A stretch of 64,000 bases of DNA from Chloroflexota bacterium (GTDB taxonomy: Bacteria > Chloroflexota > Dehalococcoidia > Dehalococcoidales > JACQON01). Numbering within the stretch: the first letter of the stretch is position 1; each line of letters begins with the position of its first letter. The DNA lies in the NCBI GenBank assembly GCA_016202545.1, contig JACQON010000028.1:56476-120475 (forward strand), given 5' to 3'. This document shows, piece after piece, positions 4,454 to 64,000 of this stretch. The translations under genes and the position numbers were made by a program. The notes below the pieces were generated by a model. The model had not been told where the DNA came from, ran no database searches, and saw only the letters and a program-made list of their open reading frames with translations.

Positions 4454-4497
4454 GCTAACGCTGGCCCATCTGTGTGAAAATACGTCAGGAGTGAAGA

Positions 4498-7708: not shown

Positions 7709-7803
7709 GGACGGCGGACTGGACTGGCGCGGCGATTTGTCATGTCCCGGTGGCATCACCAGCCTTGATGACCGGGTAGCGTACCTGAAAAGGAGGTGGT
7801 CAC

Positions 7804-8238: not shown

Positions 8239-8283
8239 GTGGCGGATTGAAGCTAGCATGGTATAGAGATAAGGAGGAGAAAG

Positions 8284-9116: not shown

Positions 9117-9149
9117 TCAGGCAGTCGGCAAGGAGATGGAAGTCGGGAA

Positions 9150-9359: not shown

Positions 9360-9399
9360 TCACCTATTTACCTGACGATACATTGGAACACCGCCGCGG

Positions 9400-12096: not shown

Positions 12097-12170
12097 GTCT
12101 TCTTCTTAGAGTATAGCATAGTGTTTTACAGGGAAAACCGCTAGATAGAGGCTATCCCGAAATGTCCTTT

Positions 12171-12320
12171 GAGATTGTTTACGAACGCTGGTCATTGCGA
12201 GGGCTTCAGCCTTCAGGCCGAGCTTCAGTCCGAGGCCCGAGTTCAGCGTTCGACTGAGCTCACGCCGAAGTCCCGAGGGCGAAAGCCCGAAGCAATGACA
12301 GAGTGTTACTAAACGACCAC
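12171..12320. mobile_element. MITE/REP-like composite element, family A (internally deleted copy)
   Basis: About 125 bp near-identical to 39362-39486; right end matches 57042-57070. Confidence 0.8.
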
Positions 12321-12332
12321 TACCGCACGTGT

Positions 12333-12362
12333 TTGACCTGCTTCGTGGTGGTTCTCTATAAT
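12333..12362 (+). promoter_or_regulatory. Putative sigma70 promoter of mnmA
   Basis: TTGACC-18 bp-TATAAT. Confidence 0.55.
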
Positions 12363-12415
12363 GCTGATGAGAACATGGCTATTTCAGGGAATGTGAGCCT
12401 ATCGGGGGGAGGACT

Positions 12416-13492: not shown

Positions 13493-13584
13493 TAGCAGGT
13501 GGCGGCTTCTTTTATTTGCGCGGCGATTTTGCTATTATAGTGGCAATTGCTCCGGACAATCGCAGTCTTTTTCGGATTTGAAAG

Positions 13585-50189: not shown

Positions 50190-50201
50190 ATCTGTGCTCC
50201 T

Positions 50202-51344
50202 TCAGCTAGGCTGTAGCGCCTGCCGAATATCATCAATCAGGTCATCAACGTTTTCCAGGCCGATGGACAGCCTGACAAGGGCATCGGTGATGCCGACTTT
50301 TTCCCTGAACTCCCTGGGCATGGAGGCATGGCTCATGGTTGCCGGATGCTCGGCGAGAGAGGCGGCGCCGCCCAGTGACTCCGCCAGGGCGAATATCTGC
50401 ATTTTCTTCAGAAAGCTGTTGACTGCCTGGAGTCCACCCTTTAGTTCAAAGGAGACCATGCCGCCAAAGCCCTTCATCTGCCTTCTGGCGATATCGTGTC
50501 CTGGATGGGAGCTAAGTCCGGGATAGTATACCCTGGTCACCGCCGGCTGCTGGCTGAGATAGTCGGCTACGGCGGCGGCGTTCTGCTCGTGCTGCCTCAT
50601 CCTCAGCGGCAGGGTCTCGATGCCTCGAAGCACCAGCCAGCAGTCGAAGGGCGAGGCACAGGTGCCCATGGCGTTGAGCAGGAAGTGCACCTGTCCGGCG
50701 AACTTCTCCGTGGTCACCACAGCTCCGCCAACCACATCACAGTGGCCGTTCAGGTACTTGGTGGTGGAATGGACAACCAGGTCAACCCCGTATTCGAGGG
50801 GCTTCAGTAAATAGGGGGTGGCGAAGGTATTGTCCATGGCCGTTATCAGGTTGTGCCGTTTGGCGATGTCAACCGCCATCTCGATGTCAACGATGTTCAG
50901 CAGCGGGTTGGACGGGGTTTCCAGCCACAGCATCCTGGTGTTCGGCTTTATCGCCTGCTCGATGGCCCGCCTGCTATTCATCCTGATAAAGGTGAACTCC
51001 AGGCCGAGATTAGACATCACGTTCTGGAACAGCCGGTAGGTTCCCCCGTATACATCGTCGCCGCAGACCACATGGTCGCCAGCCTTAAGCAGGTGGATGA
51101 CCGTGGTCTCTGCCGCCATGCCGGTGCCGAAGGCGAACCCCGCCTTTCCCCCCTCAAGCTGGGCGATGGTATCCTCCAGTACCTTGCGGGTGGGGTTGGC
51201 GGTGCGGGAGTAATCGTAGCCGCCTCTTGGCTTGCCCACGTCCTCGAAAGCAAAGGTGGAGGTCTGGTAGATGGGCACAGATATGGCGCCGAACCTTCGC
51301 TCCGGCCTCTCCCCGGCATGGATGGCCAACGTCTCAAATCTCAT
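50202..51344 (-). CDS. Cystathionine gamma-synthase/lyase family enzyme
   Basis: 'YSRTANPT', 'ETPSNP', 'DNTF', 'HSTTKY', 'ESLGG'. Confidence 0.92.
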
Positions 51345-52057
51345 ATGCCGCCTCCTTGGCTGAACTCTCTTTCAATTCTCCTCCTCCGGGCTTTTGAGTA
51401 GTCTCTGTGGACCGCCATTCCCGTTGAGCTCTCAAGCTTGGCCAGCCGCTTCTCAAGCTCATCCTGGTTCTTCAGAACGACCCGTATGGCTTCTGCTATG
51501 GGGTCGGGCAGTTGGCCGTGGTCCAGCTCAGCAAAGTGCTGATGACGGTCTTCTATTGACCGCCCCGGTACTCCGATAACGGTGGCTTCGGGCGGGACTG
51601 ACTTTATCACCACCGAGCCGGAACCAATCCTGGCTCCGTCACCTATGGTGATGGCACCCAGAGCTATTGCCCCGGCCCCGATTACCACGTTGTTGCCCAC
51701 AGTGGGGTGCCGTTTCTTCTTTTCCATGCTCGTGCCGCCAAGCACAGCTCCCTGGTACATCAGGACTCCGTCGCCTATCTCAGCGGTCTCGCCGATAACT
51801 ATCCCCGCACCGTGGTCGATGAAGAACCGCCTGCCGACCCTGGCGCCGGGGTGAATTTCGATATTGGTCAAGAACCGGTTGGTATGGGAGACGAGCCGGG
51901 CCAGAAACGGGAGCTTGTGCCGCCACAGGTAATGGGCCAGCCGGTGGAACCAGAGAGCGTGTAATCCTGGGTAGCAGAAGAGCACTTCGGCTACGCTTCT
52001 GGCGGCCGGGTCCCTGGCAAATACAGTCTGGATATCTTCCTTTATGTGCTTGAACAA
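51341..52057 (-). CDS. cysE: Serine O-acetyltransferase
   Basis: 'RDPAA', 'IEIHPGA', 'FIDHG', 'KRHPT'. Confidence 0.95.
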
Positions 52058-52094
52058 GGCGGGTGTCCTTTTCCCTCTCTAATATACCCTAAAC

Positions 52095-53108
52095 CTATAT
52101 GCCTTGGGTAGTCTGATAAAGCCCCTGGAAAATCCAGGTGGAGAGATAGCGCTCGCCGGTATCCGGTAGAACGACTACTATGAGCTTGTCCTTGTTTTCC
52201 GGCCTCCTGGCCACCTGCATCGCCGCCCAGGTGGCTGCGCCCGAAGATATACCGGCCAGTATGCCCTCTTCCCTGGCCAGCCTCCTGGTCATTATGCCGG
52301 CGTCTTCATTGGTAACCTTGATGATTTCATCAATCAGGTCTAGCCTCAGCACATCGGGAACAAAGCCGGCGCCGATGCCTTGAATCTTATGGGGTCCCGC
52401 CTTCCCGCCAGAAAGCACCGGCGAATCAGCCGGCTCGACGGCGATGGCTTTGAACTTCGGCTTCTTCTTTTTTATCACTTCGGCTACGCCGGTGATAGTG
52501 CCACCGGTGCCCACCCCGGCGACCAGGATATCAACCCTGCCTTCGGTGTCCCTCCAAATTTCCTCGGCGGTGGTTATCCGGTGTACCTCCGGGTTGGCCG
52601 GGTTTTTAAACTGCTGGGGGATGAAGTAGTTGGGATTTTCCGCCGCCAGTTGCTCCGCCCTCCGCACCGCTCCGGGCATGCCTTCGGCTCCCGGGGTCAG
52701 CACCAGCTCGGCGCCAAAGATGGACAGGAGCTGCCTCCGCTCCAGGGACATGGTGTCCGGCATGGTGAGGATGAGACGGTATCCACGGGCGGCGCAGACG
52801 AAGGCAAGGGCGATGCCGGTGTTGCCGCTGGTGGGCTCAACGATGACGGTGTCCCTGGTGATAAGGCCCTTCTCTTCGGCATCCAGTATCATTGAAGCCC
52901 CTATCCTGTCCTTTACGCTCCCCAGCGGGTTGAAGGACTCAAGCTTGGCGACTACCTCCGCTTTCGCCCCGTCATTCACCCGGTTCAACCTCACCAGGGG
53001 CGTATTCCCCACCAGCTCGGTGGAGTCCGAGGCTATGCCCCTGGTCAGCTTCGGTATTTGTATCCCCTTGTATAGCAGCTTCCCCACACCTTGCTTTGTT
53101 TCTGGCAT
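52095..53108 (-). CDS. cysK: Cysteine synthase A
   Basis: 'SVKDRI', 'PTSGNTG', 'GTGGT', 'ERYLST'. Confidence 0.96.
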
Positions 53109-53157
53109 GTCACACTTCCTCTCTTCATTTTTAATATTACGCTCTGCCACGGCAGGG

Positions 53158-54174
53158 CTATGTGCCGATATATTTGGCGTACAGCCCCCGCGCCAGCGGT
53201 AAATCATTGGTATTCTTGACGATAGCTCGCCCGTCAGGGAAAACCACCATTTCATGGTTGTCCACTTTCACCTGCAGCATAAAATCGTTGTAGCTGACCT
53301 TCGCCACTGGCTTAAGGCGCGCTGCCAGCTCCGGGAAAGAGACTCCACCCGCGCTCGTATTCAATACCTGCACTGCGTTCTGGCCGCACAGTGAAACTGC
53401 CTTCAGGCCGGCCTTGCCGTTGAGAAACTGGTATTTGCCCTGGCAGGCGGGGCAATCAGGGTGAGAGCTGATGCTGATGCGGACAAAAGTCCCTTCCCAG
53501 ACATCAACACAGATTAAGTCCCGGTTGATGCTCCGCCTAGCCCCGACCAGGAGCTTCAGCGCTTCGGCGGTCTGCAGCGAGCCGACAACGAAGGGCGCCG
53601 GGCTGATAACCCCTGCCGTGTCACAGGTCAGGATTGCCCCGCTCGCCTCGCTGGCGGAGATAGAGATACAGCGAAAGCAGGGGGTGTCATGGGGAATTAC
53701 GGTCATGGTCATGCCGGAGGAGGAAATGGCACTGCCGTATACCCACGGGATGCCCAGCTTCAAGCAGGCGTCGTTGACCAGGCCGCGGGTCTCCAGGTTG
53801 TCCAGGCCGTCCATGACCACATCGGCGCCGCTGATAAGTCCTTCCACATTGGTGTAGTTGACATCGGCGACTATTCCTTCGATTTCTATTGAGGAGTTCA
53901 CCTTCTTCAGGTGCCGCTCGGCAGCCGTGGCTTTGGGCAATTCATGCCTGATATCGTCCTCGTCAAAGAGGACCTGCCGTTGCAGATTATGGTACTCGAT
54001 GAAGTCACGGTCTATGATTCTAACCTTGCCTGCGCCGGCACGTACCAGGGCAGTGGCGATGACGGTTCCCAGCGCCCCGCAGCCAACGATAACGGCGAAG
54101 CTGTTGGCCAGCTTTGCCTGTCCCTCTTCGCCGATGCCGGGGAAAATAAGCTGCCTCGAATATCTGTCAATCAT
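53158..54174 (-). CDS. ThiF/MoeB-family adenylyltransferase
   Basis: 'RYSRQ', GCGALG, 'NLQRQ', CFRC/CPAC. Confidence 0.92.
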
Positions 54175-54215
54175 GGTTGGGACGCCCTCCACTATCTTCA
54201 GGAAGGGAGGAAGGT

Positions 54216-54659
54216 CTAAATGTAGTACATCGCCTCGCCGAGCCGCTCTTTGGTCTTGTGTCGCTCAATCAGGTCCTGGAGGGTGGTCGACTCCAGGACT
54301 CCAACGACGGCCTCTTTAAGCTCGGTCCAGACATCCCTGGTGACACATAGCCGGGAGCGGTTGCACACTCCCGGATTGTTAACGCACTCCACGGGGGCGA
54401 TAGGACCTTCAAGCAACTGGATGACTTCATTTAGCCTTATTTCCCGGGGAGACCTGGCCAGTGAGACCCCTCCCCTGGCGCCACGGGTGCTCCGCACCAG
54501 CCTTCCGGCGATGAGGGGAGTAATCAGGCGTTCCAGGTAGGACAATGGAATTTGCTGCCTTCGGGAGATAGCCTTTAATAGCACCGGGCCTTCTCCTTGA
54601 TGAAGGCCCAGGTCAAGGAGTATCCTGGTTCCATATTGTCCCCTGGTGGAAAGCTTCAT
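54216..54659 (-). CDS. Rrf2-family regulator (IscR-like, three Cys)
   Basis: 'MKLSTRGQYG', 'RGARGG', C-x6-C-x5-C. Confidence 0.92.
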   Translation of the reverse strand: MKLSTRGQYGTRILLDLGLHQGEGPVLLKAISRRQQIPLSYLERLITPLIAGRLVRSTRGARGGVSLARSPREIRLNEVIQLLEGPIAPVECVNNPGVCNRSRLCVTRDVWTELKEAVVGVLESTTLQDLIERHKTKERLGEAMYYI

Positions 54660-54672
54660 CGCCTTTTGACTT

Positions 54673-54724
54673 TTCTTGACTAAGACTATCAGTTTACTAT
54701 ACAATGCGATGTGGTTATTGTCAA
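54673..54724 (-). promoter_or_regulatory. sigma70 promoter with an overlapping IscR/Rrf2-like operator
   Basis: Minus strand TTGACA-17 bp-TATAGT, then AAACTGATAGTCTTAGTCAAGAA, an imperfect palindrome resembling the IscR type-1 box. Confidence 0.7.
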
Positions 54725-54779
54725 CATGTCCGCTTATCAGCCACCCCTCCCTGCGAGCCGATAAAAGGCAGGCCGGGCT

Positions 54780-55925
54780 ATGAAAATAACACGCTACGGC
54801 GGCTACCTCCAGGCGATTGTCAACAGCCTCGACGATGAAGTGCTGGTCATTGATAGGGACCACCGCATTCTGCTGGCCAATGAGGCGGTATTGGCAGGTC
54901 AGGGAAAAAGCGCGGCGGAAATCATAGGAAAAGGTTGCTATCTTTGCCACGGCCTGACGGCGCCCTGCCGCTCACCCCGTCACAGGTGTCCTGCCGGGTC
55001 AGTATGGCGGACGGGCAAACCGGCGCGGGTCACCCATCTGCATGTGCACCATGTCAATGGCGAGCGGCAGGAGCGATACTTTGATATTGTCTTATCCCCG
55101 ATTCGCGATGGCTGTGGCAAAGTCACTGCGCTGGCGGAGCTTATGTGCGATGTCACCGGGGTGAAGGAACTGGAGTCAAAGCTGGCCGGGTTGGACCGGG
55201 AGATGCAGCGACAGGATGCCGTCCGCGGTGAGCTACTGCGTGAGGTGCTTTCCATCCAGGAGGAGGAAAGAAGACGGATTGCCAGAGAGCTTCACGATGA
55301 GACCAGCCAGATGCTTGCCAGCCTGACAGTTAACGTTGAAGCCGTGATTGCCATGCTGCCCGCCAGTGCTGACGAAGCCAGGGCCAGGTTGAGGAAAGTG
55401 GCGCAGCAGTCAGTCCGGATGCTTGACGAGATAACCAGGGTCATTTATGAACTGCGTCCCACCTTGCTTGATGACCTCGGGCTGGTGGCGGCGGCGCGGT
55501 GGCTGGTGGACAACAAACTGACCCCGGCTGGCATTGCCGTTAGCTTCAATATAGTGGGGCGGGAGAGGAGATTGCCCTCCGACCTGGAGGCGGGCCTGTT
55601 CAGAGTCATTCAGGAGGCGGTCGGCAATATCGCCAGGCACGCCGGGGCCCGAAATGCCTTCATCGCCTTTCATTTCAAGAGAAACGCCATCAGGGTCGGT
55701 ATCAGAGACGACGGGAGGGGCTTTGATGTTGAAGAGGCCATAACTTCAAAGGACAGGCCGCGGGGGCTGGGCCTGGTGGGCATGAAGGAAAGGGCGGAAC
55801 TTATGAACGGCAGCTTGAGCCTTCGCTCATATCCCGGCCGTGGCACAGAAATCGATATCGAAGTCCCTACACGCTGTGAAAAGGCCTCCCGCCGTCTCAA
55901 AAAGGATGTAAAGGCTAAAGCCTGA
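54780..55925 (+). CDS. PAS-domain sensor histidine kinase (HisKA_3)
   Basis: 'ERRRIARELHDE', 'QEAVGNIARHA', 'DDGRGF', 'GLGLVGM.ER'. Confidence 0.92.
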   Translation: MKITRYGGYLQAIVNSLDDEVLVIDRDHRILLANEAVLAGQGKSAAEIIGKGCYLCHGLTAPCRSPRHRCPAGSVWRTGKPARVTHLHVHHVNGERQERYFDIVLSPIRDGCGKVTALAELMCDVTGVKELESKLAGLDREMQRQDAVRGELLREVLSIQEEERRRIARELHDETSQMLASLTVNVEAVIAMLPASADEARARLRKVAQQSVRMLDEITRVIYELRPTLLDDLGLVAAARWLVDNKLTPAGIAVSFNIVGRERRLPSDLEAGLFRVIQEAVGNIARHAGARNAFIAFHFKRNAIRVGIRDDGRGFDVEEAITSKDRPRGLGLVGMKERAELMNGSLSLRSYPGRGTEIDIEVPTRCEKASRRLKKDVKAKA

Positions 55926-55948
55926 AGTCATAAGCCAGGAGGTCTAAA

Positions 55949-56182
55949 ATGTGGTTCGGAGGTATGGGCTGGTGGATGCTGTTGGCAGGCATCTTGACGG
56001 TGCTGTTCTGGGGCGGGCTTATCGTGCTCATTGTGTGGGCAGTGAAAAGGATGACGGAGCGTGGAAGCCCCGGAATAGGTGGCGGCGAAAGTCGCCGGGC
56101 GCTGGACATCGCCAGGGAGCGCTACGCCAGGGGTGAAATCTCCAGAGAGGAGTTCGAGCAGCTCAAGAAAGACCTCTCCTGA
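55949..56182 (+). CDS. SHOCT-domain membrane protein
   Basis: TM helix plus 'ERYARGEISREEFE'. Confidence 0.88.
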   Translation: MWFGGMGWWMLLAGILTVLFWGGLIVLIVWAVKRMTERGSPGIGGGESRRALDIARERYARGEISREEFEQLKKDLS

Positions 56183-56185
56183 GCC

Positions 56186-56818
56186 GTGGCGATGGACATC
56201 AACAAGGCCACCGAGGCTGCCAGAAGACGGTATGACCGGATTGCCCCGTTGTATGACATCATGGTGGGCCTGGTCGAGAAGCGCTTCCGTAAATGGCGGC
56301 AGATGATGTGGAGCAAGGTGGAGGGCAGGCATATCCTTGAGGTTGGCGTTGGCACGGGCAAAAACCTGCCTTACTATCCGTCCCATGCTGAAGTGGTCGC
56401 CGTTGACTTCAGCGGCGGGATGTTGAAGCGCGCCCGCAGCCTGGCTGCCAGGGGTAAGGCCAGTGTCAGCTTGCGGCAGATGGATATACAGAAGCTTGAG
56501 TTTGAGGACAACGCCTTTGACACCGTGGCGGCCTCATTTGTCTTTTGCTCCGTTCCCGACCCCGTCCGTGGCCTGATGGAGATTGAGCGGGTGTGCAAAC
56601 CCGGAGGCAAGGTGGTCCTGCTGGAGCACGTCATCAGCGCCAACCCCGTCCTTGCCTGGCTGATGAACCTGGTCAATCCGGTGGCGGTGTGGTTTGGCGG
56701 TGAGAACATAAACCGGCGCACCGCGGACAATGTAAGGAAAAGCGGACTGGTGGTAGAGCGGGTCACCGACCTTGCCGGCGGCATAGTCAAGCTGATTGAG
56801 GCCAGAAAAAAGCGGTAG
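56186..56818 (+). CDS. Class I SAM-dependent methyltransferase
   Basis: 'ILEVGVGTG', 'FCSVPDP', 'KPGG'. Confidence 0.9.
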   Translation: MAMDINKATEAARRRYDRIAPLYDIMVGLVEKRFRKWRQMMWSKVEGRHILEVGVGTGKNLPYYPSHAEVVAVDFSGGMLKRARSLAARGKASVSLRQMDIQKLEFEDNAFDTVAASFVFCSVPDPVRGLMEIERVCKPGGKVVLLEHVISANPVLAWLMNLVNPVAVWFGGENINRRTADNVRKSGLVVERVTDLAGGIVKLIEARKKR

Positions 56819-56829
56819 CCAATCTCCGT

Positions 56830-57070
56830 GAGGGTGTTTAATGACTACTTGGCAGATGACTCCGTATGTCATAGCTACGAAATAAGATATTTTGGTGAAC
56901 CCATCCCCCTTTGTCCCCTTTCCTTTGGGGAATTGGTGAAGGGAAGGGGGAGTCAGTATAAAGAGGGGGCGAAGCCCCCTCTTTCCAAATCTCCCCTTCT
57001 CCTGCTCAGGAGAAGGGGACAAAGGGGATGAGGTCACACTTGCAATGACAGAGTGTTACTAAATGGTCTC
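56830..57070. mobile_element. MITE with an 8-bp target-site duplication, carrying a family B hairpin cassette
   Basis: ATCTCCGT at 56822-56829 and 57071-57078; imperfect TIRs GAGGGTGTTTAATGAC / GTTACTAAATGGTCTC. Confidence 0.82.
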
Positions 57071-57186
57071 ATCTCCGTGCGGCTTGACAAAAACCCGGCT
57101 GGCGGCTTAAAGTTCCATTACAGGTGTACTATCAGGTAGTGGTGGGGAGGCGGAAGACTGAAGTCCGAGAAAGGGGAGAGCCAGAC

Positions 57187-58377
57187 ATGGCAGACTTGCG
57201 GGTAAAATTCGCCGGCGTGGAGTTTAAGAACCCCATAGTGGCTTCGGCGGGGCATATAACCCACAGCCCTTACACTATGAAAAGGTGCATTGAGGCCGGA
57301 GTCGGCGCCATATGCACCAAGAGCATCAGCGTTGACGCCGAGTCGTGGAAGAGGCCGCACCCGGCCAACTGGTTCCTGGACAAGCAGGGCGACCCTGGCA
57401 GCGTGCTGACCTGCGAGGTGGGGTTCTGGCCGCCGGAGCTGGCCGTGCAGTATATACAGGAGATGAGACCGCTGGCCGATGAAGAAAACGTCAGGCTCAT
57501 CGCCAATATCGATGTGCCGCCTTTCACCGAAGACGAGCTTGCCGGAGTAGCCCGAAGATTGGAGGAAGCGGGAGCCGACATGATTGAGGCCACCTGTCCC
57601 TGTCCTATCATGATGCCCAGCAGGGAAGACGTTAATGCATGGTACAGGGAGCAGGTCTCCAGGTTCCTGAAGGCTTTGAAGCGGGCAGTGAGCATCCCGG
57701 TGTTCCCCAAGATGTCTTCGGAGTTTCTCACCGATGAGAATATCAAGATTATCGAAGACTCCGGCGCCGACGCCCACTGTTTCTGGGTGGGGTTGCCGGG
57801 TACCGCTGTTGACGTGGAGACGGGAAGGCCGGTGATGCCCTCTACCAGCCTGTATTTCGGCCGGGCCCTCAAAGGATTGGGCTGCTACATGTCCTCTATG
57901 CTGGCGATAAAAGGCAATTTGCCTATAATGAGCAGCGGCGGCATCTCCACGTGGAGAGATGCCGTGGAAAGCCTGATGTGCGGCACTACGCTGGTCGGCG
58001 TCCAGACGGCGGTGATGTACCGCGGCTACAAAGTGCTTGTGGACATGACCAGGGGACTGGGCAGCTTCATGGACAGCAAGGGCTACCGGCGGGTGGATGA
58101 TATAATCGGCATCGCCGCCCGCCACATAGAGAACAGCGCCGAGTTCGAGCAGTTTGTCAGCCAGAAGCAGGTCGACAGGGAAGCGGTAATGATAACCGTT
58201 GACCCGGTATTATGCAACGGCTGCGGTAGATGTCTCACCTGCTGTCACGGTGCAATTACCATGGAAGAGGGCCTCGCCCGGATAGACCTGGAGCGCTGCG
58301 AGCGCTGCGGCATATGCCAGTCAATCTGCCCGGTGAGGGCGATAGCCATCGGGGCGATTGAAGAGGTGCGGCGTTAG
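57187..58377 (+). CDS. PreA/dihydroorotate-dehydrogenase-like FMN enzyme with C-terminal 2x[4Fe-4S]
   Basis: 'FKNPIVASAG', 'TKS', 'CPCP', 'PKM', 'SSGGI', two CxxCxxCxxxC motifs. Confidence 0.82.
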   Translation: MADLRVKFAGVEFKNPIVASAGHITHSPYTMKRCIEAGVGAICTKSISVDAESWKRPHPANWFLDKQGDPGSVLTCEVGFWPPELAVQYIQEMRPLADEENVRLIANIDVPPFTEDELAGVARRLEEAGADMIEATCPCPIMMPSREDVNAWYREQVSRFLKALKRAVSIPVFPKMSSEFLTDENIKIIEDSGADAHCFWVGLPGTAVDVETGRPVMPSTSLYFGRALKGLGCYMSSMLAIKGNLPIMSSGGISTWRDAVESLMCGTTLVGVQTAVMYRGYKVLVDMTRGLGSFMDSKGYRRVDDIIGIAARHIENSAEFEQFVSQKQVDREAVMITVDPVLCNGCGRCLTCCHGAITMEEGLARIDLERCERCGICQSICPVRAIAIGAIEEVRR

Positions 58378-58501
58378 CGATGCGGCAATCTCCGCAGTCA
58401 AGATGTGAAACTCGAAATCTCAGATTATACGAGGCTGTCCCGCCTGGCCAAATGACGGCGGGGTTTGCCGGCCTCGCCTTACGGAAAGGAGGCAGGGGAA
58501 T

Positions 58502-58816
58502 ATGGCAGAGCAGCACCGGGTTATCTATGAAGTGGAGGAGGTGAGAGGAAGCTGCCCGGTCTACAAGGTTGGTGACAAGGTGGTAATAGACTCCAGGCAT
58601 CCGGTGGAAGTACTGAACCTTGAAAAAACTGACGCGCTGTGCATGAGGATAATCGACAATATGTGGTCGCAGAAGGTGTGGCAGGCGGGGGGCAATGCCA
58701 CCGTGGAGCATCTCACCGGCATATCCGGCGAATGCCGCATAGGGTGCTCCATGCCGGGCAAGCCATATACGCCCTGCGGATTCATCATCTTCAAAATCAG
58801 AAGAGAAAAACTATAG
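58502..58816 (+). CDS. TIGR04076-like Cys protein
   Basis: 'VEEVRGSCPVYKVGD', conserved Cys, C-terminal 'IIFKIRR'; strong RBS. Confidence 0.7.
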   Translation: MAEQHRVIYEVEEVRGSCPVYKVGDKVVIDSRHPVEVLNLEKTDALCMRIIDNMWSQKVWQAGGNATVEHLTGISGECRIGCSMPGKPYTPCGFIIFKIRREKL

Positions 58817-58861
58817 CTGCTGGCCGTGGGCTATCAGCTATAGCAGCGGAGGTGAGAGACA

Positions 58862-59509
58862 ATGGCATGGGAGACCAAATTTCCTGAGGATTCCGATACT
58901 CAGTATCCGCCTGAGGAGTACCGCCCGGATAAATTTCACTATCCCTGGCCGGGACATAAGGTGCTGGTAACCGTGGAAAGGGTATACGGTTGCTGCCCGG
59001 TAACCGTTGAAGGCGACAGGATGATGTTCAGCGATGTCGCCAGCCCGGTGTTTGACGAATGTGACATATCCAGCGATTCGCCGCTGTTTCTGGGCAGCAC
59101 GGTCAAGGGCACCAGAACGGGCACCCTTTGTACCGTGGCCCTGAAGGCGATATACCCTTATATCATAGCCATGGACTACGGGGTAAGCGCCGTAGACCTG
59201 GGCATCGCTGAGAGCGGTGAGGACGGTTTTATTGTCTGCGCCGCCTGGGGGCCTCCCAACTGCGAGGCGCAGGTCATCTTCAGGCTGCACCCCATCCCGG
59301 TGGAGAAATGCGGCACCGACATGCTGTACGAGTACCTGGCCCAGGCCGGGCACGTGGGTGTGCCATCGTATTATCTGGAGACCTTTGCCAGCGACGCCAC
59401 CAAGGAGGAGCGGAAGCGTAAGATAGAGGAGTGGAAGAAGGCCGGCAAGCCCAAATTCTGGGAGGGCTGGAGGAATCCGCCGTGTCAGCCCAGGCGAAAG
59501 GATGCCTAG
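58862..59509 (+). CDS. Extended TIGR04076-like Cys protein
   Basis: 'VTVERVYGCCPVTVEGD', 'LCTVAL..IYPY', 'C....PPNC..VIF'. Confidence 0.65.
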   Translation: MAWETKFPEDSDTQYPPEEYRPDKFHYPWPGHKVLVTVERVYGCCPVTVEGDRMMFSDVASPVFDECDISSDSPLFLGSTVKGTRTGTLCTVALKAIYPYIIAMDYGVSAVDLGIAESGEDGFIVCAAWGPPNCEAQVIFRLHPIPVEKCGTDMLYEYLAQAGHVGVPSYYLETFASDATKEERKRKIEEWKKAGKPKFWEGWRNPPCQPRRKDA

Positions 59510-60766
59510 TTGTCACAGGAGGGAAACGTGAAGCTGGAAAACGAATTTGCCCTGGTCGGAGCTACCCTGATTGACGGAAATGGCGGCCCTCCGCGCCGGG
59601 ACGTCACCATCATGGTGAAGGACGGCGTGATTCAGAAGGTAGCCGCCGGCAAAAGGGGGGTAAAGTCGGGGCCGCGGCTGCAGCGGGTTGACCTGGACGG
59701 ACGCTTTGTCATGCCCGGGTTGATAGACAGTCATCTCCACTTTACCGGCACCGCCAGCGACGACCCCGTAACCTGGCTCAGTGAGCCGAACTACCTGAGG
59801 GCGATAAGGACGGTGGCCCAGGCCCACAAGGTGCTCGATTTCGGCTTCACCACGGTAAGGTGCTGCGGCTCAAGATGCGACGTCTATTTGAGGCAGGCCA
59901 TCGAGGAGGGAACGGTAGCCGGCCCCAGGATAGTGGCCTGCGGACTGGGCATTTGCCGGACGGGGGGACACGGGGATATACGCCGGGACATCTACCAGGT
60001 TTCCGATGAGGTGCTCAACGAGACCCATCCCTGGGCGCAGCGGTGCGATGGAGTGGAAGAGATTCGCAAGGCGGTGCGGCGGCTGATAAACCAGGGGGTT
60101 GATTTTATCAAGTTCTGGATGTCAGGCGGCGATGCCTGGGAGAAGGACAGGAACGATGACGTGCACTTCACCCCGGAAGAGGCCGGCGCCATAGTGCAGG
60201 AGGCGCACATGTGCCGGCTGAAAGTCGCCGCTCACTGTGAGAATATCCGGGCCATTAAAGCCGCCATCGAGGTCGGAGTGGACACCATTGAGCATGCCGA
60301 TATGATTGCCGGTGCGCCGGGGCTGGACGAGGAAACTTGCCGACGTCTGGTAAAGAAAAATATCATCATCGTGCCCACGCTCTCCGTCTATTTTGTCGGC
60401 GCCTGGGCGGTAAAGGCCCTGCCGCAGAACGTTGTTGATAGCTACAAGCTGGCAATCAAGAGCGGAGTGAAGCTTGCCCTGGGGACGGACGCCTTTGCCG
60501 ACCGCGTTACACCCTATGGCCAATACAATGCCGGAGAGCTAAAGCTGATGACGGATATTCTGGGATTGACACCCATGCAGGCCATCGTGTCGGCGACCAA
60601 AGTAGGCGCAGAGGCAGTCGGCCTTCAGGACAGGGTTGGCACGGTAGAGGAAGGCAAGCTGGCAGACCTGCTTGTCCTCAAAGGAAATCCGGCGGAGGAC
60701 ATCGCCGTGCTCCTGGACCGGGACAACATTGAGCACGTAATAAAGCAGGGGAAACTGGTCAGATAA
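59510..60766 (+). CDS. Metal-dependent amidohydrolase (prolidase-like subgroup)
   Basis: 'PGLIDSHLH', 'IK', 'AAH', 'IEHA', 'GTD'. Confidence 0.9.
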   Translation: MSQEGNVKLENEFALVGATLIDGNGGPPRRDVTIMVKDGVIQKVAAGKRGVKSGPRLQRVDLDGRFVMPGLIDSHLHFTGTASDDPVTWLSEPNYLRAIRTVAQAHKVLDFGFTTVRCCGSRCDVYLRQAIEEGTVAGPRIVACGLGICRTGGHGDIRRDIYQVSDEVLNETHPWAQRCDGVEEIRKAVRRLINQGVDFIKFWMSGGDAWEKDRNDDVHFTPEEAGAIVQEAHMCRLKVAAHCENIRAIKAAIEVGVDTIEHADMIAGAPGLDEETCRRLVKKNIIIVPTLSVYFVGAWAVKALPQNVVDSYKLAIKSGVKLALGTDAFADRVTPYGQYNAGELKLMTDILGLTPMQAIVSATKVGAEAVGLQDRVGTVEEGKLADLLVLKGNPAEDIAVLLDRDNIEHVIKQGKLVR

Positions 60767-60826
60767 GAAGACCGGGGACATGCGTACAGAGAAGCCCGAC
60801 CGGAGACAAAGGAGGAGGTGTGACGT

Positions 60827-62314
60827 ATGGCGCTTCTTGAAGAGCCGATAAAAGAGGTAATGCAGCTTAAGAACTTCATCGCCGGTGAATGGGTTGAGTC
60901 CAAAGGCGAGCTTCAGGACGTGGTGAACCCGGCCACCTGTCAGCCGCTGGCCAGGGTGCCGATGTCAACCAGGGACGAGGTCAATGCCGCAGTGCAGGCG
61001 GCCAGGGAGGCTTTCCCTGACTGGAGGCGGACGACCCCGCTGGCCAGGGTGAGGTGCCTGTTCAGGCTCAAAGAGCTGCTGGAGGAGCATTTTGAGGAGC
61101 TGAGCCGGGTCCAGACACAGGAGCATGGCAAGACCATTGATGAATCGAGAGGGGAGACCAGGCGCGGCGCCGAAATGGTTGAGGTCGCTACCGGGATTCC
61201 CTCCCTGATGATGGGATATAACCTGGAGGACATCGCCAGCGGCATCGACGAGTATGTCATATACCAGCCGCTGGGTGTCTTCTGTCATATCGCGCCTTTC
61301 AATTTTCCGTTCATGGTGCCGCTGTGGTTCTCGCCTTTCGCCGTGGCCACCGGAAACACCTTCGTGGTGAAACCCTCTCCCAGGGACCCTATCAGCCAGG
61401 TGAAGCTGGCCGAGCTGATAGATGAGTCTGGCTTTCCGCCCGGCGTGTACAATCTTGTCCAGGGGGGCGCGGAGGCGGCGCTGGCCTTGCTGGAGCACCC
61501 GGATGTCAAAGGGGCCACTTTTGTTGGCACCACCGGGATAGGGAAGGACGTCTACCGGAAGTGCGGCGAAACGGGCAAGAGGGCGATTGTCCAGGCCAGC
61601 GCCAAAAACTTTTTGCTGGTGATGCCGGATGCCAGCGTGCAGGGGACAATGCCAGCCCTGATGACGTCCTTCTTCGGCAACACCGGCCAGAGATGTCTCT
61701 CCGGGGCCAACCTGGTCATCGTGGGCGATGATGACGCCTTCTACCGGAAGTTCCTGGACGCCTTTGTTAATACCGCCTCCAGGATAAGGGTGGGCTACGG
61801 CCTTGACGAGTCCATCCAGATGGGGCCGATGCAGTCACTGGACGGCAAAAAGAGGGTGCTGGGATACATAGAAAAGGGGATAGCGGAAGGGGCCAGGCTT
61901 GTCCTGGATGGCAGGAAGCCGGCGGTCATCGGCGGTTATCCTGACGACCATTTCCTCAATCCCACCGTCTTCGTGGATGTCATGCCTGACATGGCTATCG
62001 CCACGGAGGAAATCTTCGGCCCGGTGGCCTGCGTGTTGCGGGTCAAGAATCTCGACGAAGCCATAGAGATGGTGAACAGCAGCAATTTTGGCAATGCTAG
62101 CTCCATTTTCACCTCGAGTGGCAAGGCGGCCAGGGAATTCCAGTACCGGGTTGAGACCGGCAATGTGGGCATAAACCTGGGCATAGTCGCTCCCATGGCC
62201 TTCTTCCCCTTCAGCGGCATGAAGGACTCCTTCTTCGGTACCCTACACGGGCAGGGCCGGGATGCCGTCCGCTTCTTCACCGAGAGCAAGGTCGTCGTTC
62301 AGAGGTGGCTATAG
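60827..62314 (+). CDS. mmsA: CoA-acylating (methyl)malonate-semialdehyde dehydrogenase
   Basis: 'PFNFP.MVPLW', 'AKN', 'GQRCL', 'EEIFGPV', 'FFPFSG'. Confidence 0.92.
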   Translation: MALLEEPIKEVMQLKNFIAGEWVESKGELQDVVNPATCQPLARVPMSTRDEVNAAVQAAREAFPDWRRTTPLARVRCLFRLKELLEEHFEELSRVQTQEHGKTIDESRGETRRGAEMVEVATGIPSLMMGYNLEDIASGIDEYVIYQPLGVFCHIAPFNFPFMVPLWFSPFAVATGNTFVVKPSPRDPISQVKLAELIDESGFPPGVYNLVQGGAEAALALLEHPDVKGATFVGTTGIGKDVYRKCGETGKRAIVQASAKNFLLVMPDASVQGTMPALMTSFFGNTGQRCLSGANLVIVGDDDAFYRKFLDAFVNTASRIRVGYGLDESIQMGPMQSLDGKKRVLGYIEKGIAEGARLVLDGRKPAVIGGYPDDHFLNPTVFVDVMPDMAIATEEIFGPVACVLRVKNLDEAIEMVNSSNFGNASSIFTSSGKAAREFQYRVETGNVGINLGIVAPMAFFPFSGMKDSFFGTLHGQGRDAVRFFTESKVVVQRWL

Positions 62315-62758
62315 ATGGAGCTGAATACCACCTCCCAGGTCGTCAGCTTCGCCAGGGACCTTGAGGAGCTCGGCGCCAGGTTCTATGAAAGCCTGACCCG
62401 GCGGCATTCCGGCGACGCGGAGGTCTGGCGGCACCTTGCCAGCGAGAACAGGAAGAACGTGACACAGGTTGAGCGGGCATACTACGGGGTCATTAGTGAC
62501 GCCCTCGAGGGCTGTTTTTCCTTTGCCATAGACCCGGACAAGTACGCTATTGAGGCTGAGCCAGCCGGTGGTGCTAGCTATCATGAGACTGTGAAAAGGG
62601 CGGTCGAGATGGAGGAGAAAATCGTCAGGTTCTACCTGGAGGCGGCGGAACAATCGAAGTCTTTGATGGCGGATGTTCCCCATGCCTTCACCCTGGTGGC
62701 AAAGAAGAGGAACAGCCGCATACCAAAGCTGATGGCCCTACTGGGCAAGGAGGGCTGA
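62315..62758 (+). CDS. Ferritin-like four-helix protein with degenerate metal ligands
   Basis: 'LEE....FYE', 'AVEMEE....FY' repeats; His ligands absent. Confidence 0.6.
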   Translation: MELNTTSQVVSFARDLEELGARFYESLTRRHSGDAEVWRHLASENRKNVTQVERAYYGVISDALEGCFSFAIDPDKYAIEAEPAGGASYHETVKRAVEMEEKIVRFYLEAAEQSKSLMADVPHAFTLVAKKRNSRIPKLMALLGKEG

Positions 62759-62953
62759 ATGGCCGACGTGGTGGAAAAACGGCGCGTTCATTGCGCCCGG
62801 AGACACGTCAGCGTCTTCGTGGTCAGGTGGGACAACGGCAGCTTCAGCATCAAGTGCAGCCTGCTCAAAGCCTGCGGCGATTCCTGTCCCTACCTGGAAA
62901 ATCCCGATTATAAGAGCGAGTTCAGGAGCTCTCCGGAGTATAAGCCCGGGTAG
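62759..62953 (+). CDS. Small four-Cys hypothetical protein
   Basis: Abuts the upstream stop; GGAGG RBS. Confidence 0.55.
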   Translation: MADVVEKRRVHCARRHVSVFVVRWDNGSFSIKCSLLKACGDSCPYLENPDYKSEFRSSPEYKPG

Positions 62954-62995
62954 CTCTGGGCTGCCTTTGTGGGTGTTCGAAAGGGGGGTGACACT

Positions 62996-64000
62996 ATGAA
63001 TACAGTGGAGAAATACCGGGAGTACGTGAATACCAGCATGCTTACGGGCGTTGTGCCGGTGGTGTTTGAGCGGGCCGAGGGGGCAACGGTATTCGGCGAG
63101 GATGGGCGTAAATACCTGGACTGCTTCGCCGGAATCTCGGTTACCAACGCCGGGCACGGTAATCCCGAGGTGCTTGATGCCGCCAGGGCCCAGCTTGGCA
63201 GGTATGTCCATTGCTGCTCCTATGTCTATTACAATAAGCCCATGGCTGACCTGGCGGAAAAGCTGGCGCGGATTACGCCGGGCCGGCTGAAGAAGTCCTT
63301 TTTCACTAGCGGCGGCGCCGAGGCCATGGAAGGCGCGATGCGGATGGCCAAGACATATACCGGGAAGCGCGAGTTCATCGCCCTCCAGGCTTCCTTTCAC
63401 GGCCGCACCTATGCCACCCTGAGCATAACCGGCAACTGCGCCCGCAAGAAGCGGGCCGGGCCGTATATGCCGGGGGTCAGCTTTGCACCGGTCCCCTACT
63501 GCTACCGGTGCGCCTTCGGCCTGGAGCCGGAGACCTGCGGGACGCGCTGCGCCGAGTATGTGGAGGACATTATCCGGTTCGATACCTACAATGACATCGC
63601 CGCCTTCGTCGCCGAGCCGGTGCTGGGTGAGGGCGGCATTATCGTCCCGCCCGAGCCGTACTTCAAGAAGGTGAAGGAGGTGCTCGACCGCCACGGCATC
63701 CTGCTCTTTATTGACGAGGTGCAGACGGGGTTTGCCAGGACGGGCAAGATGTTCGCCATAGAGCACTATGGCGTTGAGCCTGACATAATGGCTATGGCCA
63801 AGGGAATCGCCAACGGCTTCCCGCTGGGCGCTTTCATCGCTCCGGATGATATTGCCGATAGTTTCCAGCCCGGCGAGCACCTGAGCACCTTTGGCGGTAA
63901 CCCGGTCAGTTGCGCCGCGGGGCTGGCCAGCATCAACTTCCTGGAGCGGGAGAAGATGGCCGACCAGGCCACGGCGAAGGGAAACCGGTTCAAAGAAGGG
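62996..64000 (+). CDS. Class III PLP aminotransferase (omega-amino acid type), runs off the window edge
   Basis: Translated by hand: MNTVEKYREY...YLDCFAG...GHGNP...FHGRT...DEVQTGFARTG...MAKG...STFGGNP. Confidence 0.92.
   Translation, partial: MNTVEKYREYVNTSMLTGVVPVVFERAEGATVFGEDGRKYLDCFAGISVTNAGHGNPEVLDAARAQLGRYVHCCSYVYYNKPMADLAEKLARITPGRLKKSFFTSGGAEAMEGAMRMAKTYTGKREFIALQASFHGRTYATLSITGNCARKKRAGPYMPGVSFAPVPYCYRCAFGLEPETCGTRCAEYVEDIIRFDTYNDIAAFVAEPVLGEGGIIVPPEPYFKKVKEVLDRHGILLFIDEVQTGFARTGKMFAIEHYGVEPDIMAMAKGIANGFPLGAFIAPDDIADSFQPGEHLSTFGGNPVSCAAGLASINFLEREKMADQATAKGNRFKEG

Follow-up and report, generated by a model that had tools for sequence, protein, structure and literature searches.

We found that a groundwater bacterium carries a catabolic run of 11 co-directional genes, which starts in the analyzed window (the whole stretch of 64,000 nucleotides) and continues past its end. 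Tentatively, we read this run as one operon-like cluster through which an unsaturated nitrogen compound other than uracil or thymine is degraded anaerobically. Its modules are found separately elsewhere and have been assembled locally; since the stand-alone PreA homologues PydAc and UacX are already known, the cluster would represent a variant of the established "reduce then hydrolyse" scheme. Its features, in order, are:

57084-57113, + strand: putative promoter-like site (TTGACA, 18-nt spacer, TAAAGT), 73 bp upstream of the reductase start
57187-58377, + strand: PreA-like reductase, 396 aa (DHO_dh and Fer4; start taken from the database protein P0001)
58502-58816, + strand: S104, 104-aa Cys-rich protein with a TIGR04076-like domain (assigned via fused relatives)
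58862-59509, + strand: T215, divergent TIGR04076-type protein of 215 aa, extended at the C-terminus by helices
59510-60766, + strand: metal-dependent amidohydrolase of the COG1228 prolidase/carboxypeptidase clade, 418 aa (Amidohydro_1)
60827-62314, + strand: CoA-acylating (methyl)malonate-semialdehyde dehydrogenase (MMSDH), 495 aa (TIGR01722)
62315-62758, + strand: Ferr147, 147-aa ferritin-like four-helix protein (Ferritin_2, weak)
62759-62953, + strand: Cys64, open reading frame for a 64-aa four-Cys protein (Cys 12, 33, 39 and 43)
62969-64000 plus 270 bp past the window end, + strand: AT1, class III aminotransferase, 433 aa (Aminotran_3, 389.9 bits)
64313-65677 (window-equivalent), + strand: AT2, class III aminotransferase (Aminotran_3, 361.1 bits)
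65703-67448 (window-equivalent), + strand: AOR, aldehyde:ferredoxin oxidoreductase (AFOR_N and AFOR_C)
67474-68628 (window-equivalent), + strand: PK, pyruvate kinase (TIGR01064, 396.6 bits, cut-off 306.4)

The successive intergenic gaps, calculated from the coordinates, measure 124, 45, 0, 60, 0, 0, 15, 42, 25 and 25 bp (range 0-124 bp), and three junctions thus have no intervening base; Ferr147 begins on the base that follows the MMSDH stop and Cys64 on the base that follows the stop of Ferr147. An Hsp20 gene on the opposite strand follows the pyruvate kinase gene. The promoter-like site agrees with the consensus at 10 of 12 positions and is, by consensus match alone, the joint best on the stretch (L004 1560-1589). 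No riboswitch was found ahead of the cluster, and no transporter or regulator gene lies within it. The assembly across the gene junctions is corroborated by contigs from two runs of one study, one of them possibly the assembly source, which bridge the junctions without mismatch. Eight of the 11 genes had been named in an initial annotation of this DNA, and all eight were recovered on the + strand where it had placed them. Its statement that PreT, dihydropyrimidinase and ureidopropionase are absent from the window likewise held and extends downstream: beyond position 64000 we found AT2, AOR, PK and then Hsp20, and not the missing genes.

The first gene of the run encodes a flavoenzyme that resembles PreA/PydA (E. 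coli PreAT; pig DPD, 1H7X/1GT8) in that an FMN barrel (Pfam DHO_dh, 76.6 bits) is followed by a C-terminal 2x[4Fe-4S] ferredoxin domain (Fer4). PreA (NF006183) is also its best NCBIfam model, with a score of 160 bits that is less than half of the cut-off of 335. The enzyme differs from this family in its low identity to named PreA proteins (26-31%) and in the lack of both an N-terminal Fer4_20 domain and an adjacent PreT partner. Its clade is rare, stands at about 28% identity to true PreA and comprises 20 database clusters that are 41-82% identical; relatives of about 500 aa with PF14691 are only 27-30% identical to it. Invariant within the clade are K45, K175, C139-P140 and two Cys motifs (C343/346/349/352 and C371/374/377/381). 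According to two independent alignments, K45, K175 and C139 correspond to K574, K709 and C671 of pig DPD, so that the enzyme has retained the FMN lysines as well as the catalytic Cys (PCP motif). In contrast, none of the five residues (N609, N668, S670, N736 and T737) that hydrogen-bond 5-fluorouracil in structure 1H7X, as given in the available text of PMC10970046, is kept: in both alignments N668 is replaced by T and S670 by P, N736 and T737 fall into a gap, and no Asn occurs at or within two residues of the N609 position. This loss makes a different substrate likely, and judging by these residues the reductase probably acts on a compound other than uracil. A role as the biosynthetic enzyme PyrD was rejected, since the genome has a separate true PyrD (264 bits) on contig C13.

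There is precedent for a PreA homologue that works without an FAD/NADPH module. In the available text of PMC7332683, PydAc of Clostridium chromiireducens is described as reducing uracil in a ferredoxin-dependent manner without an FAD domain, which is the model of electron input proposed here. However, PydAc has two ferredoxin domains and is set in a Pyd cluster, whereas the reductase of the window has the C-terminal ferredoxin domain only and lies outside any Pyd cluster. A second parallel, by description in the available text of PMC12507026, is UacX, a PydA homologue without an FAD domain that replaces YgfK in the reductive uric acid pathway and thus acts on a non-pyrimidine N-heterocycle. 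There, UacX/YgfK is coupled both genetically and kinetically to the amidohydrolase SsnA, which pulls the unfavourable reduction, and YgfK is active only if so coupled. In contrast to that pathway, the window lacks XdhD, SsnA, HyuA, YgeY and YgeX, and transamination followed by aldehyde oxidation would take the place of ureide cleavage to diaminopropionate. The undescribed route postulated in the initial annotation is supported with regard to a probably different substrate; a stand-alone PreA homologue as such is not new, PydAc and UacX being precedents.

Both proteins encoded after the reductase had been annotated as related to TIGR04076, a family of small Cys proteins of anaerobes, and this assignment was borne out, for S104 indirectly. 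S104 gave no direct family match in HMM searches and is not detected by the TIGR04076 model; its relatives are the N-terminal domains of the fusion proteins P0124, P0133, P0135 and P0127, with which it shares 42-53% identity. In P0124, P0133 and P0135, the S104-like domain is fused to a T215-like domain, and TIGR04076 finds two matching stretches each in P0124 and P0135, at scores that exceed the cut-off (60.7 and 52.7 bits). S104 and T215 moreover have a GxCP...GD motif in common (E 6e-05). T215 itself reaches 29.8 bits against TIGR04076, below the cut-off of 33, over model positions 2-87 of 91, while the relatives P0124, P0135, P0132, P0123 and P0127 pass. These relatives come in tandem or as fused repeats, like the canonical pair on contig C24; T215 departs from the family in having an insertion and about 70 aa of helical extension. 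The T215 family, in which C90, C126 and the GxCP motif are conserved, is very rare: a search of 1.84 billion representatives yielded 18 relatives at E <= 0.001.

The amidohydrolase (Amidohydro_1, 147.8 bits) is read here from a TTG at 59510, compared to a database form of 412 aa from 59528. It aligns over nearly its full length with the COG1228 carboxypeptidases and prolidases of known structure (3FEQ/3N2C, 3MKV, 3MTW Cc2672, 3BE7) and with ochratoxinase 4C5Y (E 2.7e-52 to 1.2e-37), including the HxH, Lys, His, His and Asp metal-site motifs. The best of these are the prolidase 3feq/3n2c (E 2.7e-52), the Arg carboxypeptidase 3mtw and 4c5y. It is set apart from them by an orthologue group of its own (47-72% identical; 58 of the 119 relatives listed), in which the sole functional name among the relatives listed is "imidazolonepropionase-like amidohydrolase". 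The best NCBIfam equivalog is the Xaa-Pro dipeptidase NF051886 (257 bits, cut-off 500), and the score against SsnA (NF005540) is 27.4 bits at a cut-off of 444. The solved relatives act on linear N-acyl amino acids and dipeptides, not on rings, and the enzyme falls into the clade of the N-acyl-amino-acid/dipeptide carboxypeptidases and outside the ring-opening dihydropyrimidinases.

MMSDH passes the curated cut-off of TIGR01722 (510.5 versus 448.5 bits) and in this respect resembles MmsA/IolA, from which it differs in having a ferritin-like protein directly 3' of it. MMSDH orthologues (63-67% identity) adjoin a Ferr147 homologue in all four other related genomes as well, and we know of no described role for a ferritin-like partner of an MmsA/IolA-type MMSDH. 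Ferr147 scores just 17.4 bits against Ferritin_2, below the cut-off of 24.7; among its 1481 relatives at E <= 0.001, some carry the source name rubrerythrin and some are from Chloroflexota. Cys64 gave no family match in HMM searches, and no homologue of it lies beside Ferr147 in the four other genomes. Clusters of look-alikes of 62-64 aa, most common in Chloroflexota, were found in a protein atlas (scores 0.95, 0.93 and 0.92) and serve as a lead only. For both aminotransferases, 7vno is the best solved relative, and the solved relatives include broad amino-acid racemases and GABA/ornithine-type transaminases.

In the order of steps that we infer, the PreT-less reductase would be fed by a low-potential electron donor, probably ferredoxin, by way of its two [4Fe-4S] clusters, and FMN together with the conserved Cys would saturate a C=C bond beside a carbonyl or amidine carbon, with S104 and T215 acting alongside. 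The COG1228 amidohydrolase might then cut an amide bond made labile by the reduction. One or both class III aminotransferases would turn the released omega-amine into an aldehyde, and MMSDH would convert an aldehyde of the (methyl)malonate-semialdehyde type to acetyl- or propionyl-CoA. AOR may oxidise a second aldehyde, in which case reduced ferredoxin could return to the reductase, and all genes of the run would serve one pathway. The beta-alanine/3-aminoisobutyrate end products proposed in the initial annotation are weakened, as they rest solely on the family assignment of MMSDH.

The same genes would read differently if the pathway were the ordinary reductive one for uracil/thymine, with enzymes replaced by non-orthologous ones: the reductase would be a PydAc-like, ferredoxin-dependent dihydropyrimidine dehydrogenase, the amidohydrolase would open dihydrouracil or remove the carbamoyl group, and the aminotransferase and MMSDH would fill the roles of PydD and MmsA. 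The resemblance of the run to reductive pyrimidine degradation built from other parts had been pointed out before, and the parts are indeed non-orthologous. PreA as top model, the retained catalytic Cys and FMN lysines, the fitting downstream half (a class III aminotransferase plus an MMSDH that passes its cut-off) and the dispensability of PreT, as PydAc shows (PMC7332683), agree with such a pathway. Nevertheless, we consider it improbable in view of the absence of all five uracil contacts, a PreA score below half of the cut-off and the missing N-terminal ferredoxin domain of PydAc. Two different hydrolyses would also be required of one amidohydrolase. No dihydropyrimidinase (TIGR02033) exceeds the cut-off genome-wide (best 24.5 bits), although the genome is 88% complete and absence of this and the other missing enzymes is therefore not proven. 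No nitrilase-type or M20-type decarbamoylase lies within the cluster; the two CN_hydrolase genes of the genome are on contigs C30 and C13, and its sole Fer4_20 (PreT/GltD-type) domain is on C28, not on the cluster contig. Even less probable, in our estimate, is that S104 and T215 are not partners of the reductase but XdhC-like chaperones that insert tungsto-/molybdopterin into the AOR of the cluster. Two aligners rank 2we7 (Z 7.0, rmsd 3.0, 78 residues) and 3on5 (Z 6.4; Foldseek E 0.014, probability 0.98) first among the fold matches to the T215 model (pLDDT 79.4), with the next row at Z 4.3; we take both entries to be XdhC/CoxI-type accessory proteins, on which their titles are silent. An AOR is present in the same cluster, and in L005, a locus of an unrelated genome, a reductase relative and an AOR have an XdhC_C fragment and a MobA-like gene in their vicinity. 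However, Z values of 7-8 are typical even for models without a true match, and Foldseek returned nothing at E <= 0.001, with a TM-score of only 0.29. S104 and T215 also adjoin the reductase and are six genes away from AOR, and the canonical TIGR04076 pair of this genome adjoins seryl-tRNA synthetase, where a scan of the 17 surrounding ORFs showed no pterin enzyme.

A broader objection is that the run is a mosaic serving no single pathway, in which an anaerobe that ferments amino acids or peptides carries independent modules side by side; we regard this as rather unlikely, if less so than either of the preceding readings. The modules would be a dipeptidase-type amidohydrolase with aminotransferases, an AOR for 2-oxoacid-derived aldehydes, MMSDH with its ferritin-like partner for valine/beta-alanine carbon, and pyruvate kinase, while the PreA-like/TIGR04076 module would carry out an unrelated ferredoxin-linked reduction or oxidation. 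The MMSDH-Ferr147 pair fits this picture, as it occurs elsewhere near UbiD decarboxylases, a glycyl-radical enzyme, and ribosomal protein L9 with DnaB; given these unrelated surroundings, MMSDH may be an independent module. An amidohydrolase orthologue of at least 50% identity was found in one of 362 other genomes of the order (53%, G991), where it comes after a class III aminotransferase and a LIV-type ABC transporter and without any reductase. The prolidase and carboxypeptidase relatives of the amidohydrolase, the racemases and transaminases among those of AT1 and AT2, and the housekeeping-type pyruvate kinase at the end of the run point in the same direction, as do the varying neighbours of the closest reductase relatives (four genomes and four metagenome contigs). 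On the other hand, the very tight spacing with its 0-bp junctions, the single promoter-like site in front and the two biochemical precedents for reduction followed by hydrolysis (PMC7332683, PMC12507026) speak against a mosaic. In addition, L005 reunites a reductase relative (45%) with an amidohydrolase-family gene, an AOR (35%) and a class III aminotransferase (42%). The single-pathway reading also draws on the amidohydrolase and aminotransferase of G991, on the S104-T215 fusions, and on the C-N hydrolases near reductase relatives and the pairing of reductase and T215 described below.

The initial annotation, which the above results support in part, had looked to conservation of the gene set in other genomes. 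This expectation largely failed, since the full set was found nowhere else and sub-modules alone recur, namely the pairs MMSDH/ferritin-like protein, amidohydrolase/aminotransferase and reductase/T215. S104, T215, the amidohydrolase, Ferr147, Cys64 and PK occur in none of 26 loci with reductase relatives. No T215 match at E <= 1e-6 turned up in any of 400 other genomes of the phylum, and one of 60 genomes of the same order gave a weak one; four genomes with members of the reductase clade hold no clear relative of T215 (one match at E 0.0088). The pairing of reductase and T215 is seen in P0002 (65% identical to the reductase) and P0121 (63% identical to T215), which we place on one 21441-bp JGI metagenome contig solely by equal contig size; at 63-65% identity to the proteins of the window, they may not be independent of this lineage. 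No contig of this length appears among the best 120 listed relatives of the amidohydrolase or of Ferr147, in a list that shows the longest contig of each cluster only. Among the seven related loci long enough to judge, L006 and L088 have no C-N hydrolase within 6.5 kb, and the other five (L005, L007, L008, L086 and L087) do have one within this distance.

The PreA-like reductase gene opens a run of 11 genes on the plus strand that continues past the end of the window along the same contig (C19, of which the window is 56476-120475; locus L004). The genome that carries it is 1.74 Mb in 34 contigs and 88% complete.

Genes of the cluster in order; coordinates are those of the window unless L004 is named
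57187-58377, plus strand, PreA-like protein (the reductase), 396 aa by the database start
58502-58816, plus strand, S104, Cys protein of 104 aa
58862-59509, plus strand, T215, Cys protein of 215 aa
59510-60766, plus strand, amidohydrolase
60827-62314, plus strand, MMSDH, CoA-acylating methylmalonate-semialdehyde dehydrogenase
62315-62758, plus strand, Ferr147, ferritin-like protein of 147 aa
62759-62953, plus strand, Cys64, four-Cys ORF of 64 aa
truncated by the window end, plus strand, AT1, class III aminotransferase, 433 aa when read on along the contig
after AT1, beyond the window (L004), AT2, second class III aminotransferase, 454 aa
after AT2 (L004), AOR, aldehyde:ferredoxin oxidoreductase, 581 aa
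L004 11950-13104 (window-equivalent 67474-68628), PK, pyruvate kinase, 384 aa, last gene of the run

The 11 genes are spaced by 124, 45, 0, 60, 0, 0, 15, 42, 25 and 25 bp, and no convincing terminator was found within the run. A promoter-like site at 57084-57113 matches at 10 of 12 positions. The same-strand genes upstream encode a PAS histidine kinase and a SAM methyltransferase, and the gene that follows PK, an Hsp20, lies on the opposite strand. A search of 55900-59000 for riboswitches and other RNAs (E ≤ 1) returned only two sub-threshold matches to snoRNA models, which we took as chance. Contigs from public groundwater runs match the stretch without mismatch and jointly span the gene junctions; records of run X1 cover 1432-4472 and 4443-14000 and a record of run X2 covers 3289-5974. 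The assembly itself may derive from X1, and the four runs all belong to one study. These four, all DNA from that groundwater study, are the runs holding at least half of the sampled words of the stretch, a fifth run from a different study holds 5%, and no RNA run holding the stretch was listed.

The reductase does not reach the PreA equivalog cut-off: its best NCBIfam model is PreA NF006183, with 160.4 bits compared to a cut-off of 335. It is also distinct from the biosynthetic dihydroorotate dehydrogenase, since a separate true PyrD (264 bits) is present on contig C13. In a collection of 5.8 billion proteins, 250 proteins among 5070 candidates matched the reductase at E ≤ 1e-10; the best 120 relatives listed comprise 20 clusters that are 41-82% identical, three at 33-35%, and source-named PreA proteins at 26-31%. 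The clade is sparsely scattered. Among the best 80 loci kept from species-representative genomes, four reach at least 38% identity (titled Microgenomates group, delta proteobacterium, Actinobacteria and Thorarchaeota), and four metagenomic loci among the best 80 kept reach at least 41%.

We compared the active site with that of pig dihydropyrimidine dehydrogenase (DPD) by phmmer alignment and by a 16-sequence MAFFT alignment that included named PreA proteins and PydAc-like proteins of 500 aa. In both alignments, K574, K709 and C671 of pig DPD correspond to K45, K175 and C139, the catalytic cysteine being placed in a Pro-Cys-Pro motif. These three residues are invariant in all 16 sequences, true PreA and PydAc-like proteins included, and the two [4Fe-4S] cysteine motifs are invariant within the clade. 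The residues that hydrogen-bond 5-fluorouracil in structure 1H7X according to PMC10970046 (N609, N668, S670, N736 and T737, pig DPD numbering) show a different picture, as phmmer and MAFFT agree that none of them is kept in the reductase: N668 is replaced by Thr and S670 by Pro, and N736/T737 lie opposite a gap. At an identity of about 28%, the two alignments are offset from each other by two residues in the region of N609, and in either of them no Asn is found at this position or within two residues of it. The retention of the FMN lysines and the catalytic cysteine together with the loss of the uracil contacts suggests that the flavin chemistry is retained without the uracil pocket, and the loss of this pocket speaks against uracil or thymine being the substrate.

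The initial annotation had described a pyrimidine-like catabolic operon from which PreT, dihydropyrimidinase and ureidopropionase are missing. We can confirm that these genes are not merely located downstream, as the sequence beyond 64000 continues with AT2, AOR and PK before Hsp20 is reached. Neither a PreT partner nor a β-ureidopropionase (PydC) was found in the cluster or downstream; genome-wide, the sole match to PF14691 (Fer4_20, PreT/GltD-type) is on C28, and the two CN_hydrolase (nitrilase-family) genes are on C30 and C13. For dihydropyrimidinase (PydB, TIGR02033), the best score in the 88% complete genome is 24.5 bits compared to a cut-off of 393, and the amidohydrolase of the cluster scores 23.7 bits. 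Of the enzymes expected at the end of reductive pyrimidine degradation, MMSDH passes TIGR01722 (510.5 bits compared to 448.5). With the uracil pocket of the reductase lost, we consider ordinary pyrimidine degradation very improbable.

Stand-alone homologues of PreA are already known in PydAc (PMC7332683) and UacX (PMC12507026). PydAc works with ferredoxin, and UacX takes the place of YgfK, which was found to be active only when coupled to an amidohydrolase. PydAc combines an FMN domain with two ferredoxin domains and is encoded in a Pyd cluster, whereas the reductase described here has the C-terminal ferredoxin domain only, lacks a counterpart of the N-terminal Fer4_20 ferredoxin block of its 500-aa PydAc-like relatives in the alignment, and has no Pyd genes nearby. 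A uric-acid pathway was rejected, since its other genes are all absent. We also considered a tentative analogy to nicotinate degradation, because MMSDH could in principle accept a 2-formyl acid. In that pathway, 6-hydroxynicotinate reductase and enamidase lead to 2-formylglutarate. Comparison of the amidohydrolase with solved structures gave 20 relatives at E ≤ 1e-10, and enamidase is not one of them.

These solved relatives are COG1228 prolidases, Arg/Lys carboxypeptidases and ochratoxinase, with E values from 2.7e-52. The amidohydrolase motifs DSHLHF, IKFWMSGG, AAHCE, IEHAD and GTDAF align opposite the corresponding motifs of 3feq, which we take to provide the ligands of a binuclear metal site (HxH, carboxylated Lys, His, His and Asp). 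No named enzyme was matched at equivalog level, the best model being NF051886 with 257.4 bits compared to a cut-off of 500. The protein belongs to an orthologue group of its own, in which 58 of 119 listed relatives are 47-72% identical, one of them titled Dehalococcoidales. Matches at E ≤ 1e-60 occur in 8 of 300 other genomes of the class, all at 37-40% identity, and an orthologue (53% identity) in one of 362 other genomes of the order. There, a LIV-type ABC transporter and a class III aminotransferase precede the amidohydrolase gene, and no reductase is found near it.

The two Cys proteins encoded between the reductase and the amidohydrolase appear to be related to each other. They have an N-terminal motif in common (E 6e-05); T215 scores 29.8 bits with TIGR04076, below the cut-off of 33, and S104 has no direct family match. 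When 1.84 billion representatives were searched exhaustively with HMMER, only 18 relatives of T215 were identified at E ≤ 0.001. In three metagenomic proteins (P0124, P0133 and P0135), labelled "uncharacterized repeat protein (TIGR04076 family)" by one source, an S104-like domain is fused ahead of a T215-like domain in one polypeptide, and a fourth (P0127) carries part of an S104-like domain in front; S104 is 42-53% identical to the N-terminal domains of all four. When ten T215 relatives were scanned with the NCBIfam model TIGR04076, five passed (60.7, 52.7, 42.9, 38.9 and 35.1 bits), four remained under the cut-off and one had no match, and the fusions P0124 and P0135 match the model in two stretches each. 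Based on these sequence relationships, we read S104 and T215 as divergent TIGR04076-type domains that probably work together. A passage of PMC8667426 offers no more than a guess at the role of TIGR04076. The same genome encodes a canonical TIGR04076 tandem pair on the minus strand of another contig (G000:C24:76003-76586; 59.6 and 67.1 bits; ORFs of about 90-95 aa) just downstream of seryl-tRNA synthetase, a housekeeping context, so that the family is paired even outside the cluster. The small TIGR04076-like proteins of this contig, of C72 and C150 in genome G065 and of genome G058 have housekeeping or unrelated neighbours, which gave no functional hint.

Homologues of T215 are very rare in related genomes. 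We found one weak match in 60 genomes of the same order, no match at E ≤ 1e-6 in 400 other genomes of the phylum, and no clear match in four genomes with members of the reductase clade. Searches of T215 and S104 against solved structures gave chance-level rows only (E 0.64 and 1.4). The T215 model (pLDDT 79.4, pTM 0.73) returned nothing at E ≤ 0.001 with Foldseek, the best row being 3on5 (E 0.014). In a wide structural scan, in which Z 7-8 is typical even for models without a true match, 2we7 (Z 7.0) and 3on5 (Z 6.4) ranked ahead of the next row (Z 4.3). Both are presumably XdhC/CoxI-type accessory proteins, and we treat such a fold for T215 as a lead only. That S104 and T215 act as cofactor chaperones seems to us the most improbable of the explanations considered. 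The S104 model, built from a 5-row alignment, was too poor for a fold search (mean pLDDT 54.4). A complex prediction for the reductase with T215 scored 0.00 ("no answer"), which speaks neither for nor against binding.

Downstream, Ferr147 belongs to a large family with 1481 relatives at E ≤ 0.001, some of them source-named rubrerythrin. Homologues of Ferr147 turned up in 4 of 300 other genomes of the class, in every case directly 3' of an MMSDH orthologue of 63-67% identity.

Positions of the MMSDH and ferritin-like gene pair in this cluster and at loci (L) of four other genomes
window 60827-62758
L196 2003-3968
L197 390-2423
L198 2493-4749
L199 4345-6307

The surroundings of the pair vary and include UbiD decarboxylases, a glycyl-radical enzyme, and ribosomal protein L9 with DnaB. 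The pair is conserved in Chloroflexota and suggests that Ferr147 is an unrecognised partner of MMSDH; literature searches with a wider aim revealed no description of it. Cys64 has no recognisable homologue beside Ferr147 in the four genomes. Its look-alike clusters in a protein atlas (62-64 aa, 50-86 members each) have scores of 0.95, 0.93 and 0.92 and are commonest in Chloroflexota, so that Cys64 probably represents a real small protein family, again as a lead only. For the class III enzymes AT1 and AT2, the best relatives are 7vno, a GABA/ornithine transaminase of archaeal type, and PLP racemases that share its fold; neither the substrates nor the amine specificity of AT1 and AT2 can be read from the sequence. 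PK, at 384 aa, matches the barrel model in two stretches, the best of which begins at model position 181; part of the usual enzyme therefore seems to be missing.

Is the cluster conserved as a unit? A BLAST comparison of its 11 proteins with 26 loci carrying reductase relatives revealed S104, T215, the amidohydrolase, Ferr147, Cys64 or PK in none of them. An AOR (35% identity) and a class III aminotransferase (42%) were found in L005, AORs also in three further loci, and MMSDH fragments about 9 kb away in two. According to the Pfam annotation of 97 ORFs around the eight closest relatives, the contexts are varied. In L005, an amidohydrolase-family gene, PrpD, the AOR and the aminotransferase converge on the reductase gene. 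The neighbours in L008 include a deacetylase, an M19 dipeptidase, a proline-racemase-like gene and a DAO oxidoreductase; those in L087 a creatinase-like M24 gene, LIV-type ABC transporters, an isochorismatase and a molybdenum hydroxylase; those in L007 a Fer4 protein and an ATC hydrolase; and those in L086 an amidohydrolase. No C-N hydrolase is located near the relatives in L006 and L088. Just upstream of the relative in L005 (8048-9030; from a MAG titled Microgenomates group bacterium), a MobA-like NTP transferase and an XdhC_C fragment are encoded, and with the AOR flanking, pterin-cofactor maturation genes appear to travel with that copy of the clade. One further hint that the reductase and T215 occur together, the only one, is indirect: P0002 (65% identity to the reductase) and P0121 (63% to T215) each come from a single 21441-bp JGI contig, a length that does not recur among the listed relatives of the amidohydrolase and Ferr147, for which each cluster is represented by its longest contig only.

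We tentatively read the 11 genes as a single route, a possible though by no means assured assignment, in which reduction would be followed by hydrolysis, transamination and aldehyde oxidation. The published stand-alone homologues PydAc and UacX make the first half of such a route credible. With two aminotransferases and two enzymes that oxidise aldehydes, the cluster would likewise be compatible with a diamine, or with a compound from which two amines are released. Alternatively, the cluster may be a mosaic of independent modules lying side by side. This seems somewhat unlikely to us, and it is kept alive by the lack of conservation of the gene set and the separate occurrence of its modules. 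A bolder version of the single route, which we regard as distinctly unlikely, would have the reductase form a new three-part class with S104 and T215, in which the TIGR04076-type Cys proteins replace PreT for electron input or substrate presentation. The cluster would then be the first pathway of groundwater Chloroflexota that reductively opens an unrecognised N-heterocycle or cyclic amidine and converts it via an omega-amine to an acyl-CoA, with AOR recycling ferredoxin. Candidate substrates would be a mono-oxo pyrimidine, an ectoine-type tetrahydropyrimidine or a pyridone. Our literature searches revealed no TIGR04076 partner of a PreA homologue and no description of the reductase clade, which the supplementary networks of PMC7332683 and PMC12507026 may include.

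PreA/PydA homologues are emerging as a toolkit for the anaerobic dearomatisation of N-heterocycles, with PydAc acting on uracil and UacX on 2,8-dioxopurine. The clade described here keeps the chemistry with the whole substrate pocket replaced, and thereby marks at least one substrate class beyond those known so far, for the identification of which the cluster provides a testable set of enzymes. For TIGR04076, the adjacency to a flavin/Fe-S reductase and the fusion of paralogues offer a first genomic handle on function, and the family would obtain its first function if the three-part reductase proved true. Should the cluster prove to be no more than a mosaic, what is left of the finding is a rare reductase clade without an assigned function.

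Two further features lie upstream of the run. A divergent cysteine/sulfur cluster on the minus strand (window 48966-54950), upstream of the kinase and methyltransferase genes, encodes an Rrf2 regulator, a ThiF-family protein, two PALP enzymes, a hexapeptide transferase and a Cys/Met-metabolism PLP enzyme; Usp, two class V aminotransferase, NadA, NifU, DsrE-like and RACo genes are found further along. Immediately upstream of the promoter-like site, an intergenic repeat, about 170 bp long and containing palindromes, occupies window positions of about 56875-57040. Copies with 88-98% identity over 93-175 bp are present on C24 (two copies), C16, C32, C23 and C22, a 72 bp piece (94%) on C6, and many shorter pieces at other places. 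Read depth over the repeat is up about two- to tenfold in three of four runs, and run contigs end there. The repeat resembles a small dispersed element of intergenic DNA.
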